The notes below the pieces were generated by a model. It saw nothing but the letters and a program-made list of their open reading frames with translations. It did not search any database and had not been told where the DNA came from. The position numbers were made by a program, and so were the translations under genes. This document shows positions 4,939 to 46,266 of a stretch of 64,000 nucleotides of DNA, one piece after another; position 1 is the stretch's first letter, and every line of letters starts with the position of its first letter. This DNA is from Syntrophales bacterium. Lineage in GTDB: Bacteria; Desulfobacterota; Syntrophia; Syntrophales; UBA2185. The DNA lies in NCBI GenBank assembly GCA_049521775.1, contig JBEKOL010000016.1, forward strand, positions 753 through 64,752. The letters are read 5' to 3'.

Positions 4939-5107
4939 ACTCATATGTACGTATCAACTGTATCAGTTCATTTCTTCTTTTAATATTCTTATTTATTAGA
5001 AACTTGATGGTTGATAGTCTCTTAGGTTTATCTAAAAATCTTGCCGGGATTCAGGACCTCAGTGGCCCTAAATTGCTGCGCAATCCTACTGCGAAAGGAG
5101 GGTGTCG

Positions 5108-6844
5108 ATGGACAAAATTCTTAGAATCAACATGGGGGCCGAAGGCGGTCCAAAAGTAAGTGTCGTTCCATTGGGGGAGTATGCCGGGTTGGGGGGCAGG
5201 GCCATGACCTCCTCTGTTATTTCCAAGGAAGTGCCACCGCTGTGTCATCCATTGAGCGAAGATAATAAACTTGTTATCGCGCCGGGAATGCTGAGCGGAA
5301 CAAGTGCCTCCCAGTCGGGGCGCATTTCAGTGGGCTGCAAGAGCCCGTTGACAGGCACGATCAAAGAGTCCAATTCGGGAGGGCAGCCCTCACAGGTGCT
5401 GGCGCGATTGGGCTATGCCGCGATCATCCTGGAAGGAAAGCCCAAAGAAGGCAATCTCTATAAGATCTTCATCAACAAGGACGGAGTGAAGATAAAACCC
5501 GACAGCAGCCTCTCTATGCTGGGCAATTATGACCTGGTGGAAAAGATGAAGAAGGAGTATGGCGACAAGATCGCGTGCATCTCCATCGGACCGGCGGGCG
5601 AAATGAAGATGTCCGCCGCCTCAGTGGCCTTTACGGATATGGAACAGCGGCCTACCCGCCATGCCGGGAGAGGCGGACCCGGGGCGGTTATGGGCGCCAA
5701 GGGAGTGAAGGTCATAGTCCTCGACGACACGGGTTTGTCGAACCGTACTGCCAAAGACCCGGAGAAGCTCAAAACGGCCAATAAGGCATTTGTTGATGGT
5801 CTGAGGAAACATCCTGTTACCGGCGAGGGACTTCCCGCGTTTGGGACCAACGTACTGGCCAATGTAATCAATGAAGCAGGCGCATATCCGACCAATAACT
5901 TCCTTGTGGGACGCTTTCCGGGAACCTCCAAGATCAGTGGGGAAACGCAGGCTGAAACGGAAAAAGCCCGCGGCGGCATTCCCACCCACGGCTGTCACCG
6001 GGGATGCGTGATCCAGTGTTCGGGAGTTTACATGGACAAGGATGGTCATTACCTGACCAAGCAGCCGGAATATGAGACGGTCTGGGCCCACGGCGCGAAC
6101 TGCGGTATCGACGATCTGGATGCGATTGCCATGATGGACCGCCTGGACGACGATTACGGCATTGATACCATCGAGATGGGAGCAACCATTGGGGTCGCCA
6201 TGGAGGCAGGGCTGGCAAAATTCGGCGATGGCGAGGCAGCCATCAGGCTCGTCAAGGAAGTAGGGAAAGGCACGGACCTGGGACGCATACTGGGGAACGG
6301 GGCCGCCGTGACCGGTAAGGTGTTCGGCATCGAGAGGGTTCCCGTGGTCAAGGGGCAGGCCATGCCTGCGTACGATCCACGCGCTGTTCAGGGTATCGGG
6401 GTCACCTATGCCACCAGCACTATGGGCGCCGATCATACGGCGGGATACGCGGTTGCCACAAATATCCTCAAGGTTGGGGGGTATGTGGATCCACTGAAGC
6501 CGGAAGGGCAGATCGACCTCTCCAGAAATCTACAGATTGCGACTGCGGCCATTGACTCAACAGGCATGTGCCTTTTCATTGCCTTTGCGGTCTTGGATCA
6601 GCCGGACACATTCCAGGCGCTCATCGATATGCTCAATGCCTTTTATGGCCTGAACTTGACTGCCGATGACGTGGTTGCACTCGGCAAGAGTGTGCTGATG
6701 ATGGAGCGGGACTTCAATGCCCGTGCAGGTTTCACGGCAAAACATGACCGGCTGCCCGAGTATTTCAAGAAGGAACCTCTTCCGCCCCATAATGTGACGT
6801 TCCAGGTGACAGACGCAGATCTGGACAGGGTGTACAACTGGTAG
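5108..6844 (+). CDS. aor: Aldehyde:ferredoxin oxidoreductase (tungstopterin AOR family)
   Basis: AOR hallmarks are present: GRGGPGAVMGAKGVK, the Cys cluster GCHRGCVIQC, and DSTGMC (the fourth 4Fe-4S ligand region). The ATG at 5108 is preceded by AGGAGGG. The GTG at 5102 in the track is unlikely. Confidence 0.9.
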   Translation: MDKILRINMGAEGGPKVSVVPLGEYAGLGGRAMTSSVISKEVPPLCHPLSEDNKLVIAPGMLSGTSASQSGRISVGCKSPLTGTIKESNSGGQPSQVLARLGYAAIILEGKPKEGNLYKIFINKDGVKIKPDSSLSMLGNYDLVEKMKKEYGDKIACISIGPAGEMKMSAASVAFTDMEQRPTRHAGRGGPGAVMGAKGVKVIVLDDTGLSNRTAKDPEKLKTANKAFVDGLRKHPVTGEGLPAFGTNVLANVINEAGAYPTNNFLVGRFPGTSKISGETQAETEKARGGIPTHGCHRGCVIQCSGVYMDKDGHYLTKQPEYETVWAHGANCGIDDLDAIAMMDRLDDDYGIDTIEMGATIGVAMEAGLAKFGDGEAAIRLVKEVGKGTDLGRILGNGAAVTGKVFGIERVPVVKGQAMPAYDPRAVQGIGVTYATSTMGADHTAGYAVATNILKVGGYVDPLKPEGQIDLSRNLQIATAAIDSTGMCLFIAFAVLDQPDTFQALIDMLNAFYGLNLTADDVVALGKSVLMMERDFNARAGFTAKHDRLPEYFKKEPLPPHNVTFQVTDADLDRVYNW

Positions 6845-27957: not shown

Positions 27958-29307
27958 TTACCGGTTATGGACGCGGAGCAGATATTCCACTACCTTCTCG
28001 AGATGGCGGAGCGTGCTGCATTCCCGTGCGATGCTGCAGTAAGGTAGGTATTTTTTCATCTCCGAATCCCCCGACCCCCAGAGAGAAGGCGTTTCGGGAT
28101 TGAGCCATATTAATCTCTTGCACCTTTCGGAAATGAACCGAAGCACTTCGGTATGCGGCTCCGAATAGTTGTTACGGGCGTCCCCTAGGATAATTACCGT
28201 TGCTTTCTTTGTCAGGCAATCTGAATATTGATCCTTGAAATCAAGAAGAGAGCCTCCGTAATCGGTGCGGCCCAGGAGAATCGGAATACCGGCTCCCGAG
28301 CGAAGCATCGCGAGAGCCTCGTGAAGCGGGTGCATTTCAAACAGAGGGCTCACTTCAACTAGGTTCGTACAGAATACGAAGGAGCGGATCCGGGAGATAA
28401 CCTCGTTTAAGCTGTATAGGATGAGAAGAAAAAAACGTACTATGTTCGAAACAGAACGGCTCACGTCGCAGATGACGACTATTTCCGGGCGATCAATCTT
28501 CTTCGATTTCCAGTGGGTGTCAAACGGAAGACCTCCGTAGGTGATGCTCTTACGGAAAGTCTTCCTGAAGTCCAGGTGCCCCCTCCGGGCAGCCCTTGGC
28601 CTCCTCGAATAGCGGTCCTTCAAGTGTTTTACCATCCTCTGTATAATTTTATGGATCCGGGCGAGATCCCGCTCATCCAGCGCGGAGAGTCTTGCATTTC
28701 TGATGTAGCCCTCGGATAGCTCATACTGCCGCCTCGCGGCGTAAAGTTCGAGTTGTCTTTCAACCAGATTTTTTACCTTTTCCATAAGATTGTCCCGCAT
28801 GGATTCCAGGGCTTTCGCCTGATCGAGGGCGTCCTGACCTCCAATTTCGGCAAGCCTTCGGATGTCCCTGTTTAGACCCTCCAGGCCGAGCTCCTGAAAA
28901 AGCCTCTGCATGAAGAGGCCCTTCTGCGTCCATGATTGAATGCTGCGGATGTCTGCCCTCTCCCCGGCAGCTCTAAGCGCCATGGCAAGCCCGCCTACGT
29001 CACCTGACAAGAAGATCTGCGTCAGTGGCGCTTCCCCCTGAAAGGTCGGAGGGAGGCTTTCATTCTCCAAGAGGAAATCTTCTCCTGTAATGTAATCCAG
29101 GGCAAAAAAGCGGCTGAAACAGACATCAAAGATCTCTTTCTCCGGCATGGACTTGGCAAGTGAGGCAGACAGAAAATCTTTCAACACCCGCCTATCACTA
29201 TATCCTGACAGTTCCACCGCGCGCAGGGCATCCATGGTTTCCGCGACGGATATCCTCACGCCGGAGCGGCGTAGCGCAGTGATAAAATTCTCAAGAGTAC
29301 GATCCAA
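27958..29307 (-). CDS. VWA-domain protein, CoxE-like
   Basis: The CoxE-type N-terminus FITALRRSGVRISVAETMDALRAV and the MIDAS motif DVSRS in VVICDVSRSVS are present. It abuts the MoxR gene with no gap. Confidence 0.8.
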   Translation of the reverse strand: MDRTLENFITALRRSGVRISVAETMDALRAVELSGYSDRRVLKDFLSASLAKSMPEKEIFDVCFSRFFALDYITGEDFLLENESLPPTFQGEAPLTQIFLSGDVGGLAMALRAAGERADIRSIQSWTQKGLFMQRLFQELGLEGLNRDIRRLAEIGGQDALDQAKALESMRDNLMEKVKNLVERQLELYAARRQYELSEGYIRNARLSALDERDLARIHKIIQRMVKHLKDRYSRRPRAARRGHLDFRKTFRKSITYGGLPFDTHWKSKKIDRPEIVVICDVSRSVSNIVRFFLLILYSLNEVISRIRSFVFCTNLVEVSPLFEMHPLHEALAMLRSGAGIPILLGRTDYGGSLLDFKDQYSDCLTKKATVIILGDARNNYSEPHTEVLRFISERCKRLIWLNPETPSLWGSGDSEMKKYLPYCSIARECSTLRHLEKVVEYLLRVHNR

Positions 29308-35971: not shown

Positions 35972-36106
35972 AAAAAGAAACACTGCAAGATCTTTGGAAT
36001 ATTAGCCCATATCCCATGATCACTTGTCCCTGTATTCTCACAGGGAACACGCATTTGGAAGCGCGTTCTCTGAGAACGGAATGAAGTAAAAGGTGTTATC
36101 TCACCA

Positions 36107-37057
36107 ATGCATGAGATCATCCAAAACCTGATTCACCACGGGTACATTCTTCTTTTCCTCTGGATGTTTTCGGAGAGACTCGGCATTCCCATCCCTGCAA
36201 CCCTCCCACTGATTGCTGCCGGTATTCTTACCGAGATGGAGTACATGCAGTTTGCCTATGCCATAGGTTTGGCTTTCGCTGCCGTCATGCTCGGGGATAT
36301 TGCATGGCTTTCTATCAGCCGGGTTCGCGGAATTCATGTCCTCTCTTTTCTCTGCCGCATAAGCCTTGAACCGGATGCGTGCGTGAGGAAGACGCAGAAT
36401 TTGTTCGCAAAGCATGGGCCTGCTTTTCTGCTGTTCGCAAAGTTCATTCCGGGGCTCGGCAATCTGACGGTAGCTCTTGTCGGTATTGTGAGATTGCCGC
36501 TTAAGACTTTTCTGCTTTTCGACAGCATCGGTTCGCTCCTCTGGGTAGGATTCTTCATGGGCGCCGGTTATATTTTCAGCCGTGAAATACAACTCGTAGG
36601 GATTGCCCTACCTGACTGGGGAGAAGGAAGTGTTCTTATAGCCGTTCTTATGCTCGTTGCTTTTTATATCGCATGGAAATATTTACGCAGGAGGCGTCTT
36701 CTTAAGGAATTATTTTCCAACCGCATGAGCGCTGAAGAGCTCAAAGGGAAGATCGATGCTGGTGATGAGATCGCCATTTTAGATGTAAGACATCCCTTGG
36801 AGTTTGAGGCTGATCCGTATGTAATTCCAGGCGCCCTTTACTTTCCCCTGGAGAATCTGGAACGGTTTTCCGCCGTTCCCGTCGAAAGGGAAACTGTGAC
36901 TTACTGCTCCTGACCAAACGACGTGTCGAGTGCCCGGGCGGCATTAATACTGAAGAAGAAGGGATTTATCAACGTGCGGCCGTTGGCCGGTGGATTCAGC
37001 GGTTGGCAGGAGCATAATTATCCTGTTGAAGCTCGCAGAGAGAGCAGTGAGCCGTGA
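36107..37057 (+). CDS. DedA-family membrane protein fused to a rhodanese domain; in-frame TGA (36911-36913) at the catalytic position, so a candidate selenoprotein (or a nonsense pseudogene)
   Basis: The DedA core is residues 1-190, followed by one TM helix and then rhodanese (ILDVRHPLEFE...). The track ORF stops at ...TVTYCS-TGA. The same frame continues PNDVSSARAALILKKKGFINVRPLAGGFSGWQEHNYPVEA... to TGA 37055-37057, which completes the rhodanese fold. Confidence 0.7.
36929..36945 (+). other. SECIS-like hairpin 15 nt downstream of the in-frame UGA
   Basis: AGUGCC-CGGGC-GGCAUU gives 6 bp including one G-U pair. The loop has G at its second position, and the apical loop sits about 20 nt from the UGA. 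Confidence 0.45.
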
Positions 37058-37986: not shown

Positions 37987-38544
37987 TCAATTAGCTGGCA
38001 GAGACGGAAGCCGACAAAAACCCTGTGCGGGTACGTCGAGGGCGCTGTTGAACTTGCTGGATAAATTCTGAAAAGCAACCAATCCCGTAAGTTCGACGAG
38101 CGCATCTTCGTCAAAGAAGTCACGTAGTCGCGCCATTAATTCATCGCTCACTTGTTGACCCGGATAGGTAATTGCCTCAGCGTACTCCAAAACAGCCTTT
38201 TCTTTCCCGCTGAAAAGCTCACTTTCCCGCCATCTTTCCAAGGCTTCCAGCTTTTCCACAGAGCCGGCTCGCTCTGCAAATATACATGCATTGATATCAA
38301 TACAAAAGGGGCACCAGTTTATTTGTGACACCCTAAGCATGACCGAAGAACGCAAAACAGGATCGATGGGGCTTCCGCTCCTGTCCAGCACACCATATAG
38401 AAATGCCACCGCCAAGAAAAGCTTTGGCACTCTCGCCCAGAGGAGGGCGGACTTCAGGACCTGACCGAACTTTCTTTCTTGGTTCCAGAACAATGGACGA
38501 AGGTACCATGGATACTTATGTATGGGTTTTTCTGAAATTTTCAT
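37987..38544 (-). CDS. Carboxymuconolactone decarboxylase / AhpD-like family protein
   Basis: 185 aa, helical, with a CxxC motif in QINWCPFCID. Confidence 0.55.
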   Translation of the reverse strand: MKISEKPIHKYPWYLRPLFWNQERKFGQVLKSALLWARVPKLFLAVAFLYGVLDRSGSPIDPVLRSSVMLRVSQINWCPFCIDINACIFAERAGSVEKLEALERWRESELFSGKEKAVLEYAEAITYPGQQVSDELMARLRDFFDEDALVELTGLVAFQNLSSKFNSALDVPAQGFCRLPSLPAN

Positions 38545-39974: not shown

Positions 39975-40039
39975 GAAATTAATATTCAACGGTGAGGAAT
40001 AGATGTTCCGAATGGCGAGTTTCATGCGAGGTGACTTCG

Positions 40040-40960
40040 ATGATTAGATCACTTGATGATGTCTCCAGAATAGCCGGGGAAAAAGGGCCGAAAAAGCTTG
40101 CCGTTCTCGCCCCTGAAGATGAGGAATTCATGTTGGCGGTGAAAAGAAGCTGGGAAGCTGGGTACATCGAACCCGTCCTCATCGGGAATTCGGAGAAGAT
40201 GGATGAACTGGGGGAGAAGGTCGAGTTCGACATCAGCAGGTTTGAGAGGATTATTGAAAACGACAGGCAAAGGATATCCGATCTCGGCATCGGCATGCTC
40301 TTTTCGGGGAAACTGTCTATCGTGAGCAAAGGCCAGATTCCGACCTCCTACGTCTATCGCTCGATCATTCGGGCGGAAGGGAAGGCGGCCTCCGGCATGA
40401 CAGTGAGCGTCGTCTCCTTCTGGGAGATACCGGGACTCGGCCATCTGACTGCCTTCACGGACACCGGCGTCAGTATAACGCCTGATTACAGGACGAAGGC
40501 GGACATTCTCAGGAATGCCGTCTTTCTGTACCATTTGCTCGGGTATGAGAAACCGAGGATCGTTGTTATTTCCGGCCAGAGGAAATTCGGCAGGACACTC
40601 GATTCTTACCGCGATTACAAATTACTCAGGGAGGCCGCAGATGCGGGAGAGTTCGGGGAATGTGAGGTTGTCGGTGCGACCTCCTTCACGGAGATATTCC
40701 TGGGGCCGAGGGGCCGCCTGAGAGATTACCGAGATATCGATTTAGCGAAGATTCCGCATATTATCCTCGTCCCCCGCCTCGACACGGGCAACATCATGTG
40801 CAAGCTTGATTTTTTCCTGGATGTGACTCGCTGCTCAATCGCAGTGACCTCAAGAGGGGCAGTCTGTATTCCCTCGCGCGCGGACTTCAGCGATTCCATT
40901 ATTACCGAGCTTGCAATGGGTGTTGTGGTGGCCGACAGGCTGGAAAAGGGGGTGAGGTGA
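40040..40960 (+). CDS. Phosphate acetyl/butyryltransferase-family protein, divergent paralogue
   Basis: PTA_PTB-like N-terminus (KKLAVLAPEDEEFMLAVKRSWEAGYIEPVLIGN). The ATG at 40040 has a GAGGTG SD. The region equivalent to the GPL.D.A motif of its neighbour is not conserved. Confidence 0.65.
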   Translation: MIRSLDDVSRIAGEKGPKKLAVLAPEDEEFMLAVKRSWEAGYIEPVLIGNSEKMDELGEKVEFDISRFERIIENDRQRISDLGIGMLFSGKLSIVSKGQIPTSYVYRSIIRAEGKAASGMTVSVVSFWEIPGLGHLTAFTDTGVSITPDYRTKADILRNAVFLYHLLGYEKPRIVVISGQRKFGRTLDSYRDYKLLREAADAGEFGECEVVGATSFTEIFLGPRGRLRDYRDIDLAKIPHIILVPRLDTGNIMCKLDFFLDVTRCSIAVTSRGAVCIPSRADFSDSIITELAMGVVVADRLEKGVR

Positions 40961-40961
40961 A

Positions 40962-41855
40962 ATGGCCGGCACATTCGCGGATATTATAGAGGCAGCGAGG
41001 AAAAAGGCAGCGAAAAGACGGCTGGCGATCTCATCGGTGAAGAAGTCGGATCTGGAAATTATCTCCAAGGCGGCGAAAGAGGGACTTATCTTTCCGGTGT
41101 TGGTCGGTGACGGCAAGGCGATGGAGACCCTGGTAAAAAAGAGCCATCTTGCATCTCTGGAACATGAAATCATGGACGTGAAAGATGCCGGCGGGTTTCT
41201 TCGGGCGGCAGTCGCGCTCGTCCGGGAAGGGCGTGCGGATATGCTTATGCAGGGAGCTGAAGATTTGAAGAGTTTCATGAAAGCAGTTCTCGATGCAAAC
41301 ACGGGACTCTTGAAGGGGAAGCTGGCAAGTTATGTATCGGTCTTCCAGTTGCCGAAAAGCGACAAACTGGTTCTAGTGACCGATACGTTCGTGAATAACT
41401 ATCCGGGCGTTACTGAAAAGCAGGTAATCCTTGAACAAGCAATAAATCTGGCGGGCCTGCTGGGGATAGAGGCGCCAAAGGTCGCCGTCCTTGCCGCCAT
41501 TGAACAGGTTAATCCCAGCATCCCCTCGACGCTTGATGCCGCCGTTCTCTCCAAGATGGGGGAGAGGAAGCAATTCGGAAACGCGATTGTCGAAGGCCCC
41601 CTAGATATTGATTGCGCCTTGAGCCATGTAGCGGCGGCAAGAAAAGGGATTAAAAGCGTCGTCACCGGAAACGTCGATATCTATCTCGTGCCCGATATCG
41701 AGAGCGGGTATCTGCTTGCGCAGTCCCTCGTTTTTATCGGAAAGATGGAAATGGCGGGTGTTCTCATGGGAATGACGAAGCCCGTGATCCTGAATATTCC
41801 CTTCGTCTCCCGGGGAAACCGGCTTGTGGAAATCGCTCTGGCATCCTTGATCTGA
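40962..41855 (+). CDS. ptb: Phosphate butyryltransferase-like
   Basis: Canonical PTA_PTB features are present: KEGLIFPVLVGD, RADMLMQG, VEGPLDIDCALS, YLVPDIESGYLL. The start codon lies 1 nt after the preceding stop. Confidence 0.8.
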   Translation: MAGTFADIIEAARKKAAKRRLAISSVKKSDLEIISKAAKEGLIFPVLVGDGKAMETLVKKSHLASLEHEIMDVKDAGGFLRAAVALVREGRADMLMQGAEDLKSFMKAVLDANTGLLKGKLASYVSVFQLPKSDKLVLVTDTFVNNYPGVTEKQVILEQAINLAGLLGIEAPKVAVLAAIEQVNPSIPSTLDAAVLSKMGERKQFGNAIVEGPLDIDCALSHVAAARKGIKSVVTGNVDIYLVPDIESGYLLAQSLVFIGKMEMAGVLMGMTKPVILNIPFVSRGNRLVEIALASLI

Positions 41856-41864
41856 GGGAAAGAA

Positions 41865-42953
41865 ATGATGCATAGGGAACATCACCTGCTTGTCATCAAT
41901 GTAGGCTCGACGTCGACTAAGGTGGGCTGGTTTTCGGGCAGAAACAATGCCGTGCTCGAAACGATCCGATACAGCAGTGAAGCGCTGGCTTCTTATAAAT
42001 CCATCGGTGAACAGCTTCCCCGCCGGGAAGAGGACATTCTTAAATTTCTCGAAAGAAACGGTATCAGCCTGAAAGAGATCGATATGATCGTCAGTCGCGG
42101 CGGACTGGGGAAACCGGCGCCCGCAGGCGCTTACAGGATCGATGAGGATATGTGCCGGGATCTTCTGGAGGGTAAATACGGAATGCATCCCTCGGCACTG
42201 GGACCGGCCATGGCCCTTGATATTGCGAAAAAATACGGCATGCCGGCCATAGTCATCGACCCGCCGAGCACAGATGAATTCCAGCCTCTCGCGAGAATAT
42301 CCGGCCTTCCCGAAATTGAGAGGAAGAGCGCTTTTCACGCCCTGAATCAGAAGATTGCGGCAAGGCGACTTGCCCGGGAGATGGGGAAAAAATATGAGGA
42401 GCTGAACCTCGTTGTGGCCCACTTGGGCGGGGGCGTCACCATCGGCGCTCATCAAAAAGGCAGGGTGATTGACTGTACCAATGGACTCGGTGAAGGGCCT
42501 TTCACGCCGGAGAGAGCCGGCTCCCTTCCCACAATAGATTTGCTCAATCTTGCATTCTCGGGAAAGCTTGACAAGAAAGAGATACAGGGACGGCTTGTGG
42601 GGCAGGGAGGCCTCTCGGCATATTTCTCCACAACAGATGGGCAGAAGATCCGCGACATGATCAATACGGGAGACGAAAGGGCGAAACTTATTTATGAAGC
42701 AATGGCCTATCAGGTTGCAAAGGACATCGGTTCCATGTGTGTTGTCTTGAAAGGCGCAGTCGACGGAATTATACTGACAGGCGGACTGGCCCATTCAGAG
42801 TTGCTGATTGACTGGGTCAGGGAGAGGGTCGGTTTCCTTGCACCTGTCTTCGTCTATCCAGGTGAAGACGAGATGTCGGCCCTGGCCGAAGGCGGCCTTC
42901 GGGTCCTGCTGAAGGAAGAAGAAGTAAAAAGCTACCTGCAAAACGGGGAATAA
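41865..42953 (+). CDS. buk: Butyrate (short/branched-chain acyl) kinase
   Basis: LLVINVGSTSTKVGWF is an ASKHA phosphate-1 motif, and the length of about 360 aa fits. It follows the ptb genes. Confidence 0.88.
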   Translation: MMHREHHLLVINVGSTSTKVGWFSGRNNAVLETIRYSSEALASYKSIGEQLPRREEDILKFLERNGISLKEIDMIVSRGGLGKPAPAGAYRIDEDMCRDLLEGKYGMHPSALGPAMALDIAKKYGMPAIVIDPPSTDEFQPLARISGLPEIERKSAFHALNQKIAARRLAREMGKKYEELNLVVAHLGGGVTIGAHQKGRVIDCTNGLGEGPFTPERAGSLPTIDLLNLAFSGKLDKKEIQGRLVGQGGLSAYFSTTDGQKIRDMINTGDERAKLIYEAMAYQVAKDIGSMCVVLKGAVDGIILTGGLAHSELLIDWVRERVGFLAPVFVYPGEDEMSALAEGGLRVLLKEEEVKSYLQNGE

Positions 42954-43831: not shown

Positions 43832-45109
43832 TCAATCTGCTGCCTGAGACCCTTTTCGTTGCTTGACTATTTCCATGAAGGCATCGATGCGCGTGGAAAC
43901 CTGGCTCTCTGAAAAGCTCCGCTCATCCACCATGTCGGCCTCAATCATCAGGCAGGGAATCCCTCTTTCCTTCTCGACGATCTTCTGGATATCATACTGG
44001 CCCAGGGAGTAAGGTTTGCAACTCCGGTTCGAATGCATCACGATGCCGTCGACCTTATACTTATCCACCATTTCAAGTACTATATGGGCCATCTCATCCA
44101 CGCCGATATTGAGATAGATGCGCGTATAGGCCTCGGCCATGGAGTCAAAGAAGTTATTCTCGTCTATGTATTTCGTCGTGCCGCACCAGGCGGAAGTATA
44201 TGTATCCGCCACGAGGCAGGCGTTGTGTGAAGCCAGCTTTTCCGAGAGCCAGCGCGTCCGGGGCCAGATGGGGATGTTGTCCCAGAGGAGCCTGTACTTC
44301 TCATTGGGAATAGCCCCGATCCCTCTGGCCACGCGGTCTTTCATCTTCTCTAAGAGCTGGGTGTAATAGTCGATTACGAGTGGTGTTCCTCTCAGTGTTA
44401 CTATCAACGCCAGGTGGTAAAAGGCATCAAAGGCCGTCATGGGCGCGGGACTGTTTGCGGTCGTTGCCAGTACTGCCTGCCAGAGCCGCTGTCCTTCAAG
44501 GGAAAGCTTTCCCACAGCCTTTAGATGGTCGCTATCCATTTTCCTTCCGCATGTCTTTTCCAGGAAAAGGACATATTCATCGAGCTGCCTGCGGACATAT
44601 CTTCGGGCCTCTTCGGCATAGCCTACATGACAGAATGGTGTATCGAAGATGAAAAGGGGGACGTTGAAGTAGCGGGCCTGAACTTCATACCATTTCAGAA
44701 CTGTCCCGCAGATATTGTTGCAGCATATGAGCATGTCGGGACGGGGAAGACCGCCGATAGGGCCGCCGTTTACCGTTGCGCAGGCGATATCAGAACGGGC
44801 GTAGGAGCAGAGGTCGCTCGAATATCCCATGGATTCCGACTTTTCACAAAGGTCCGTCCCCATCTTACTCGCCCCGATCATTGCCCCGTGGTTTTCCGGA
44901 TAAACCGGAATTACATCCATCGCTATGAGGGGTTCGACTGGGCCGCCGCTTGTAATCCAGGCAACCTTCCTGCCACTGATACGGGCGCTCTTTGCCTCCA
45001 TATAATAGACCATCATGATCTCTTTCATCTTTTTTTTCTTCTTGAAATGGAGGGCAATTTTCTTGATCTTCGCAAGAAAGAAGAGCAAGATCTCCGGCAT
45101 CTTATTCAT
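43832..45109 (-). CDS. 2-hydroxyacyl-CoA dehydratase / BcrC-BadD-HgdA family subunit
   Basis: GRKVAWITSGGPVEPLIAMDVIPVYPENHGAMIGA is typical of HgdA-like subunits. The start at 45109 has the SD GGAAGTGAG. An alternative ATG lies at 45028. Confidence 0.8.
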   Translation of the reverse strand: MNKMPEILLFFLAKIKKIALHFKKKKKMKEIMMVYYMEAKSARISGRKVAWITSGGPVEPLIAMDVIPVYPENHGAMIGASKMGTDLCEKSESMGYSSDLCSYARSDIACATVNGGPIGGLPRPDMLICCNNICGTVLKWYEVQARYFNVPLFIFDTPFCHVGYAEEARRYVRRQLDEYVLFLEKTCGRKMDSDHLKAVGKLSLEGQRLWQAVLATTANSPAPMTAFDAFYHLALIVTLRGTPLVIDYYTQLLEKMKDRVARGIGAIPNEKYRLLWDNIPIWPRTRWLSEKLASHNACLVADTYTSAWCGTTKYIDENNFFDSMAEAYTRIYLNIGVDEMAHIVLEMVDKYKVDGIVMHSNRSCKPYSLGQYDIQKIVEKERGIPCLMIEADMVDERSFSESQVSTRIDAFMEIVKQRKGSQAAD

Positions 45110-45147
45110 AAACGTCTCACTTCCGTTTGTTCATTGAAGAAAATATT

Positions 45148-46266
45148 TCATAACATATCGACGAATGTTTCAAACCGCGTGCGCAACTGGCCTTCCGAGG
45201 GGAGCTGGTCCTCCACTTCAAACATCATGCTCGGGATTCCTTCTCTATCGAGGAATTCCTTCATGTAGGGATAATCAAAGGCATGGGGGTCGCAGAACTT
45301 GAGGAAAAAGAAGACGACACCGCCGGCGCCTTTTTCTTTCGCAATTCTTAAGAGATTTTCACCCCTGGTGAATATCCCGGCATGCTTTGCGGGGCATACG
45401 GGCCTGTTCATATAACGTCCGGCTATAGCGGCGATGGGATCTGCGTTATCTTTTACCGATTCCTCAAAATATCTTGAGCCGGTGCAGAAATCATCCCAGA
45501 CGACGGCCGCGCCGGCTTCTTCAATGATCCGGTAGATATCGGGGTGGTTGCAGACGCCTCCGGCCAGGACTATACGTTTGCCTGCATATAATTCTGCATT
45601 CCCCTTCTTCTTTTCCAGTTCCTCGATAACTGCAGGAAGGGCCTCCGTAAGATGGTCCCGGTCCATCATCATGGAAGCCTTAACAATGGCATAGAGATCG
45701 CTGCCGCTGATGATTCCGGGGTTTTCGGCTTTCAGTTCGTACAGCCTCTTGAGAGAACCCCTGATGGTGTTGAAGGTCTTAATGGCGTTCTTCAACTTGT
45801 CGTCGGTGATCTGCACGCGCAGGTGCGAGGCAAGGTCATTCCCGAATTTTTTCAGGATGTCGATCATGTATGCCCTGGCGCTTTCTGTATCCAGCTTCAC
45901 AGGCAGCACCACGTCAACGTGAAAAGGTCCTTTCACATTCATACGCCAGATATCGGAGAGCCGCTGGATAGAATCGCAGGTGTGTGGGAAAACGGCCCCA
46001 TCGAGGAAATCAAGATTGCCCGCAAGGGCCCCTTCGAGGGCTCCCCGCACCAGAGAGCAGCAGTAGGATTGGAAATGGGCGTCGGCAAAGTGAATATTTC
46101 CCCCTGTAGCGAAAATCCTGAAAGGATGCGCTCCCGCGGCGTATATGATTTCTTCCGGTGTATAGGAACAGAAGTATCCAACGATCTTCCGTCCTTGTTC
46201 CTTCATTTTCCTGCCGTATGATCCCGGATCTTTCAAAATCTCGTAAAATTCATCACATTGCTTCAT
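45148..46266 (-). CDS. 2-hydroxyacyl-CoA dehydratase / HgdB family subunit
   Basis: 372 aa. GRKIVGYFCSYTPEEIIYAAG is the HgdB-type N-terminus. The SD is AAGGGGA. Confidence 0.8.
   Translation of the reverse strand: MKQCDEFYEILKDPGSYGRKMKEQGRKIVGYFCSYTPEEIIYAAGAHPFRIFATGGNIHFADAHFQSYCCSLVRGALEGALAGNLDFLDGAVFPHTCDSIQRLSDIWRMNVKGPFHVDVVLPVKLDTESARAYMIDILKKFGNDLASHLRVQITDDKLKNAIKTFNTIRGSLKRLYELKAENPGIISGSDLYAIVKASMMMDRDHLTEALPAVIEELEKKKGNAELYAGKRIVLAGGVCNHPDIYRIIEEAGAAVVWDDFCTGSRYFEESVKDNADPIAAIAGRYMNRPVCPAKHAGIFTRGENLLRIAKEKGAGGVVFFFLKFCDPHAFDYPYMKEFLDREGIPSMMFEVEDQLPSEGQLRTRFETFVDML

Follow-up and report, generated by a model that had tools for sequence, protein, structure and literature searches.

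A probable selenocysteine-containing DedA-rhodanese fusion protein whose gene is routinely truncated at an in-frame UGA in soil and sediment bacteria

Rhodaneses of the cysteine (Cys) type include membrane-anchored and single-domain proteins such as YgaP and PspE. For most DedA membrane proteins, to our knowledge, the physiological substrates are unclear. The NCBIfam model NF041203, "rhodanese_LYCAU (seleno)protein", describes stand-alone proteins of about 126 amino acids (aa) with one rhodanese domain, a catalytic selenocysteine (Sec, U) or Cys and a further Cys two residues upstream (…YC[AST]U…), and the type is listed as "rhodanese-like form 3, CxU" in a 2026 review (PMC13188914). Thus, a rhodanese selenoprotein with a C-x-U motif is an established kind. 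The same review lists TsoB (NF045694; Haft & Tolstoy 2025), a rhodanese/DsbD fusion-like selenoprotein, which provides a precedent for a rhodanese selenoprotein joined to a membrane-protein-like module. Here, we describe a gene at 36107-37057 of a 64-kb stretch of DNA from a Syntrophales bacterium (hereafter the window), very probably a genuine Sec-decoded gene to judge from its sequence and that of its relatives, in which a C-x-U rhodanese domain follows a DedA membrane domain. Full-text literature searches found no paper combining selenoprotein, rhodanese and DedA, and the papers found to mention both selenocysteine and DedA describe no such protein; only the DedA fusion architecture looks undescribed, the kind of selenoprotein itself being known.

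The upstream part of the frame comprises 268 codons from ATG 36107 and ends in ...ERETVTYCS-TGA (36911-36913). Past this TGA the frame stays open for 47 sense codons, PNDVSSARAALILKKKGFINVRPLAGGFSGWQEHNYPVEARRESSEP, up to a second TGA at 37055-37057. The first-pass annotation of the window had located the first TGA inside a rhodanese fold, at the active-site Cys and two residues after another Cys, had read the 47 codons as the missing half of that domain, and had drawn a hairpin with a G in its loop close behind the UGA; it had also mentioned that rhodanese-type selenoproteins have been predicted from metagenomes. All of its coordinates and sequences proved correct, and the domain searches, alignments and folding reported below agree with it on each of these points. 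Indeed, when U was replaced by C, the Pfam rhodanese model PF00581 scored 49.2 bits against a gathering score of 22.2 (E 7.5e-13), and its single match, over model positions 1-101 and residues 208-302, runs straight across codon 269. In alignments, U269 falls on the Cys of the CGSGFRS loop at the active site of 6mxv, a rhodanese of solved structure, and on Cys65 of a manually entered GlpE sequence, and the active-site loop reads U-P-N-D/E-x-S-S-A-R. A Foldseek search against the PDB matched rhodaneses, over the rhodanese half only. The fold and the register of the active-site loop are therefore those of Cys rhodaneses such as GlpE, which differ in having Cys rather than Sec, no upstream C-x partner and no DedA fusion.

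Among the curated families, NF041203 is the best NCBIfam match of the window protein and of every further fusion examined (E 1e-19 to 1e-27), although none reaches its cutoff of 115 bits (76.6 bits for the window protein and 70.5-95.6 bits for five other fusions). The fusions carry its (L)YC-x-U/C motif, as TYCSU in the window and ILYCTU in the Acidobacteriota forms. They depart from the stand-alone model in their length (316 aa for the window protein), to which a DedA domain at the N terminus contributes about 200 residues, and in an invariant CX8C pair of their own. The resemblance to TsoB is more remote, with 21.8 bits against a cutoff of 805: its module is DsbD-like and it has two Sec in a UxxxxU arrangement, whereas here the module is DedA and there is a single Sec in C-x-U. 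The membrane half belongs to the DedA/VTT superfamily, being helical and multi-spanning and scoring 44.1 bits with PF09335 (gathering score 33.9), but it stays far under the equivalog cutoffs for Escherichia coli DedA (PRK10847, 40.7 versus 236 bits) and the undecaprenyl-phosphate transporter UptA (NF052604 and NF052605, 29.2 versus 250 and 26.6 versus 300), from which it is further set apart by the C-terminal rhodanese selenoprotein domain and perhaps by a CX8C loop conserved within the fusion family.

We took the DNA of 164 related loci from species-representative genomes and metagenomes, and read each in frame through the column aligned with codon 269. Two loci end before this column, and the codon counts thus cover 162. 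The codon is TGA in 119 of them, TGC in 33 and TGT in 10 (43 Cys forms), and never TAA or TAG. TGA forms are found in Syntrophales/Syntrophaceae, with 62-88% identity to the window protein, in several lineages of Acidobacteriota (Acidoferrum, Terriglobia, Bryobacteraceae, Solibacter-like and one Pyrinomonadaceae) and in Methylomirabilota/Rokubacteria, and the TGA is kept at the identical column across phyla, down to 36% protein identity. A TGA ortholog of 84% identity is carried by the complete chromosome OY970063.1. Cys forms come from Terracidiphilus/Acidobacteriaceae, Verrucomicrobia, Nitrospirota and some Bryobacterales. On a neighbor-joining tree of 147 distinct sequences, Sec and Cys have been exchanged at least eight times. 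The same picture emerges from a protein search, in which about 48 clusters with 58-99% identity are nearly all exactly 268 aa long, and hence cut at the same codon, while more distant homologs (about 45% identity) have 311-327 aa and C-x-C-PNE at the UGA site. These Cys-form homologs align over their full length with the 316-aa protein. Cys267 is invariant (147 of 147 distinct sequences), and together with U/C269, Cys83 and Cys92 it makes up the four invariant Cys/Sec columns of the family.

The tail after the UGA is open and free of frameshifts in every locus that extends far enough. Its peptide is conserved as PN[DE]x[ST]SARxAL…G…VRPLxGGxxxW…P, and conservation collapses past the next stop. 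Within the Syntrophales clade, the ratio of nonsynonymous to synonymous substitution rates (dN/dS) is 0.14 over 38 codons of the tail, compared with 0.22 for the 62 codons upstream of the UGA, so that the tail evolves under purifying selection. A few single sequences stand apart. The Syntrophaceae metagenome-assembled genome (MAG) fen_1164 has a TAA (L013:10627-10629) eight codons 5' of the Sec-UGA, where all others have a Glu or Asp codon; in this one genome, the copy is probably either a true pseudogene or misassembled. A close relative of 281 aa (P0044) is unlike the family beyond about residue 222, and one locus (L115) matches it only to about residue 169; both are probably frameshifted or partial copies.

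A short way 3' of the UGA lies the hairpin, which in the window is extended by a lower 4-bp helix to 36923-36950 and is the minimum free energy (MFE) structure of the region, at -9.6 kcal/mol. We aligned the 48 nt from the TGA in 95 distinct TGA forms and 39 Cys forms; the region has no indels, and the alignment is therefore free of gaps. In the TGA forms, columns 18-24 pair with columns 30-36 (the U of UGA being column 1) and close a 5-nt loop, CGUGU, CGUGC, CGGGU or CGGGC, which begins 21 nt after the UGA. The stem has 7 bp in most orthologs and 6 bp in the window. Standard pairs fill 95.8% of the cells in the 95 TGA forms, versus 23-61% in registers with the 3' arm displaced by 1-3 nt; for the Cys forms the value is 63.4%, no better than in a shifted register. 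Covariation is seen at two of the pairs: pair 18-36 is C-G in 41 and G-C in 30 of the TGA forms, and pair 21-33 is C-G in 76, U-A in 12 (the window among these, AGU…GCA) and U-G in 6, all counts being over sequences and not over independent events. All four columns are synonymous third positions. To separate constraint on the RNA from constraint on the protein, we held the peptide fixed and redrew synonymous codons according to each gene's own codon usage. Of the 7 pairs, 6.71 are kept in TGA forms, against 4.17 expected, and 4.44 in Cys forms, against 4.17. The hairpin is thus kept, with compensatory changes, in orthologs with TGA and largely absent from those with Cys.

The bacterial selenocysteine insertion sequence (bSECIS) model asks for an apical loop of 3-9 nt, a stem of 4-16 bp, an MFE of -7.5 kcal/mol or less, a G in the first two loop positions followed by G or U, and a spacing of 16-37 nt between UGA and loop (quoted in PMC13188914). 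The window hairpin falls within every one of these limits (5-nt loop, 6-bp stem, G at loop position 2, 21 nt, -9.6 kcal/mol). It resembles the SECIS of Escherichia coli fdhF, and the bSECISearch consensus, in being a coding-region stem-loop just 3' of the UGA that satisfies all constraints; its sequence is unrelated to that of fdhF, and we infer the binding of SelB here.

Four observed features speak for Sec decoding of 36107-37057: Sec and Cys codons pair at one column, the tail is conserved as translated sequence, the hairpin is conserved and covaries, and the domains form a coherent architecture. The first-pass annotation had named one alternative, a recent nonsense pseudogene; the tail would then be a former coding sequence in decay. 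Seen in a lone sequence, a domain interrupted by an in-frame stop does look like this, and one relative, as noted above, has an extra TAA eight codons upstream. However, the TGA stands at the identical column in 119 loci across phyla, at identities down to 36%, it is never replaced by TAA or TAG, and the tail, with its dN/dS of 0.14, has acquired neither stops nor frameshifts. Assembly chimeras of one sequence are excluded by the identities of 36-88% among loci. The column of TGA and Cys codons and the conserved open tail together exclude both a pseudogene and a sequencing error, and we leave the nonsense mutation next to no chance. A second alternative takes the UGA for a genuine terminator, with a functional 268-residue product made of DedA and a half-rhodanese stub, and the tail conserved for some other reason, such as a small open reading frame (ORF) or an RNA element. 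Gene callers and the NCBI and JGI annotations do give exactly this 268-aa product, and because Sec decoding in bacteria is usually inefficient, the truncated form is probably made as well. Yet half a rhodanese that lacks the active-site loop and the last beta-alpha units is unlikely to fold, and a separate start codon is lacking in the tail. Only the reading frame continuing from the upstream ORF is conserved there, it agrees residue for residue with the C-terminal half of the Cys forms, and its conservation ends at the second stop. We regard a genuine terminator as very improbable.

Several observations weigh against Sec decoding. The Sec machinery of this genome was assessed within the window, and none of selA, selB, selD and tRNA-Sec is present in these 64 kb. 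ARAGORN found no tRNA-Sec in the window or in 60 related loci, Pfam searches of 20 of the large window ORFs gave no sel genes, and selA and selB were not found in the flanks of related loci. Rfam yielded no matching family, either in a gathering-threshold scan of the whole window or in a permissive scan of 36850-37000, and it appears to have no general bacterial SECIS model. The window hairpin by itself is no stabler than shuffled sequence (z = -0.11), so that its significance comes from the comparative data only, and its outermost helix pair is lost in the window (G/A). That Sec machinery was found neither in the window nor in the readable flanks of the loci also speaks for read-through or recoding of another kind, in which near-cognate suppression by Trp, Cys or Arg, stimulated by the hairpin, or a reassigned code would yield a full-length protein free of selenium; downstream hairpins can indeed stimulate read-through in general. 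However, TGA is the commonest genuine terminator in the window, where it closes 19 of 40 long frames, and it also ends this very gene, 47 codons later; the genetic code is therefore standard. The codon alternates with Cys codons only, as expected for Sec, the loop size, loop G and spacing of the hairpin are those of the SelB-type bSECIS model, and the closest curated family is a (seleno)protein family sharing the C-x-U. Furthermore, the lineages are documented users of Sec, 19 selenoproteins having been predicted in Syntrophus aciditrophicus and some in Acidobacteria (PMC1794560), which supports Sec decoding indirectly. We consider read-through without Sec improbable.

Under Sec decoding, the gene would encode a 316-residue inner-membrane selenoprotein, its N-terminal two thirds being the DedA/VTT membrane domain. 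The last transmembrane helix is at about residues 175-193. The loop at residues 70-105 has six Lys or Arg (K/R) residues and bears Cys83 and Cys92, and the linker at residues 190-210, which follows the last helix, is likewise K/R-rich; by the positive-inside rule, both are placed in the cytoplasm. The linker would thereby put the C-terminal rhodanese domain in the cytoplasm, and both Cys/Sec pairs are predicted to lie on the cytoplasmic side. Cys83 and Cys92 (CRISLEPD[AS]C) are invariant in the 147 distinct Sec and Cys sequences and also in 70 Cys forms. An AlphaFold2 model of a Cys-form homolog is confident (mean predicted local distance difference test score, pLDDT, 82.5; predicted template modeling score, pTM, 0.64) and bears out the two domains, with helices in the membrane part and an alpha/beta fold after it.

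We suggest that UGA-269 is, in all likelihood, decoded by SelB and tRNA-Sec under the direction of the coding-region SECIS hairpin. Sec would then replace the catalytic Cys of the rhodanese active-site loop, with the Cys two residues upstream as a putative resolving Cys, and the C-x-U pair could form a selenenylsulfide. The protein may act as a membrane-tethered transferase or reductase of chalcogens (S/Se), with C-x-U at the cytoplasmic face of DedA and possibly a relay between this site and the invariant Cys83 and Cys92. This specific biochemical role is tentative and rather doubtful. A link between DedA and selenite was reportedly described by Ledgham et al. in 2005, and a passage in a review gives such a link second-hand (PMC11422209). 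A more far-reaching possibility, which we hold to be rather unlikely, is that the family forms a widespread, so far unannotated membrane chalcogen relay and is the first selenoprotein of the DedA superfamily: DedA would move an S or Se anion, for which selenite, thiosulfate or a polysulfide/persulfide carrier are candidates, and the C-x-U rhodanese with Cys83 and Cys92 would capture or reduce it at the membrane face. If this were true, the old observation on DedA and selenite would gain a concrete catalytic module. The permanent fusion of DedA to a redox-active Sec/Cys rhodanese site, with a second invariant Cys pair, offers a specific hypothesis about substrate chemistry that is testable by mutation.

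Bacteria of soils and sediments carry the gene widely, in roughly 460 species genomes, and gene callers routinely truncate it at the UGA. The TGA forms, 119 of the 162 sampled loci, are named in NCBI and JGI as 268-aa "VTT domain-containing" or DedA proteins, and their active site is thereby lost from the annotation. The carriers belong to abundant lineages of soil, peat and sediment (Syntrophales, Acidobacteriota and Methylomirabilota), whose selenoproteomes are consequently undercounted. The repeated switches between Sec and Cys also constitute a natural experiment on when selenium repays its cost. The coordinates of the features are collected in Table 1.

Table 1. Features of the putative DedA-rhodanese selenoprotein gene, in window coordinates
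Feature	Position	Strand	Details or basis
Putative DedA-rhodanese selenoprotein gene, complete coding sequence, 316 residues	36107..37057	+	ATG 36107, predicted Sec-UGA codon 269, stop TGA 37055-37057
Possible Shine-Dalgarno sequence AAGGTG, 11 nt 5' of the ATG	36090..36095	+	suggested by reading the sequence
DedA/VTT domain, residues 29-155	36191..36571	+	Pfam PF09335; hydropathy, K/R distribution, AlphaFold2 model
Cys83-X8-Cys92 (CRISLEPDAC), K/R-rich DedA loop, predicted cytoplasmic	36353..36382	+	
Single rhodanese domain, residues 208-302, split by the UGA	36728..37012	+	Pfam PF00581
C-S-U motif at the catalytic Cys position	36905..36913	+	Cys267 (TGC 36905-07), Ser268, predicted Sec269 (TGA 36911-13)
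Post-UGA tail, 47 codons, C-terminal half of the rhodanese fold	36914..37054	+	conservation across loci, dN/dS
SECIS-type hairpin AGUGCC-CGGGC-GGCAUU	36929..36945	+	5' arm 36929-36934, loop CGGGC 36935-36939, 3' arm 36940-36945

In the window, a divergent DUF3108 gene and a convergent pentapeptide-repeat gene flank the fusion gene, which stands alone. The first-pass annotation had pointed to an AhpD-like CxxC protein downstream. A CMD/AhpD-like gene with CPFC is present at 37987-38544, but it is encoded on the other (-) strand and its place beside the fusion gene is not conserved, the arrangement being common only to very close relatives (L166); a tie to this gene, and to DedA-dependent selenite uptake, is speculation. 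Across lineages, a gene of the nitroreductase family (PF00881) adjoins the TGA-form gene on the same strand, within about 60 nt, in nine loci (L012, L015-L017, L022, L023, L027, L029 and L063). A gene for a DoxX membrane protein is directly upstream in about eight loci, and a gene for a transporter of the major facilitator superfamily (MFS) directly downstream in eight; in L018, L024, L025 and L044 the neighbor is upstream of the TGA-form gene. The other recurrent neighbor clusters mostly reflect synteny within one Cys-form clade of Acidobacteriaceae, and only nitroreductase, DoxX and MFS span lineages. Their adjacency hints at redox chemistry. It counts against the functional model proposed above that the neighborhood is not conserved throughout the family, and that these three adjacencies occur in subsets of the loci and none of them in the window. 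In E. coli (L165, NZ_CP023820.1 2041242-2043811), selD is directly preceded by ydjA, of the nitroreductase family, an order that echoes the nitroreductase adjacency of the Sec-form genes and may be a coincidence.

Other observations concern selenium-related genes and TGA codons elsewhere in the loci. A tblastn search with E. coli SelD against the window and 1.66 Mb of loci gave one match, beside a Cys-form locus (L071) of a Terriglobia MAG, and none in the window. It is a 687-aa ORF (L071:169-2232, - strand) whose C-terminal part resembles E. coli SelD (35% identity, CGGCGSK motif), about 8 kb upstream of the Cys-form DedA-rhodanese gene. In three loci of the Acidoferrum type, the TGA-form gene is followed, at a distance of 1.2-2 kb, by a gene for tRNA-Cys(GCA), not for tRNA-Sec (L015:7230-7306, L016:12026-12102 and L017:12718-12794). 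Other genes split by a TGA, which would be independent evidence of Sec decoding, were sought in the window and in the Syntrophales loci. The only recurrent candidate was a conserved frame reading IPLIQR-TGA-EPC (…IPLIQR-U-EPC…, UxxC-like, in four relatives; L005:2568-3023 and equivalents), which we rejected as the antisense shadow of a VWA/CoxE gene. In the window this frame (28420-28872, + strand) lies inside VWA_CoxE (27958-29307, - strand), and it has GGA at the TGA codon and a stop elsewhere.

The neighborhood in the window (39992-42953 and 43832-46266) holds two PTA_PTB phosphotransacylase genes, an acetate/butyrate-kinase-like gene, HGD-D (2-hydroxyglutaryl-CoA dehydratase) genes and an acyl-CoA ligase gene, along with a gene for an aldehyde:ferredoxin oxidoreductase (5102-6844). 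These metabolic genes fit a syntrophic degrader of fatty or aromatic acids.

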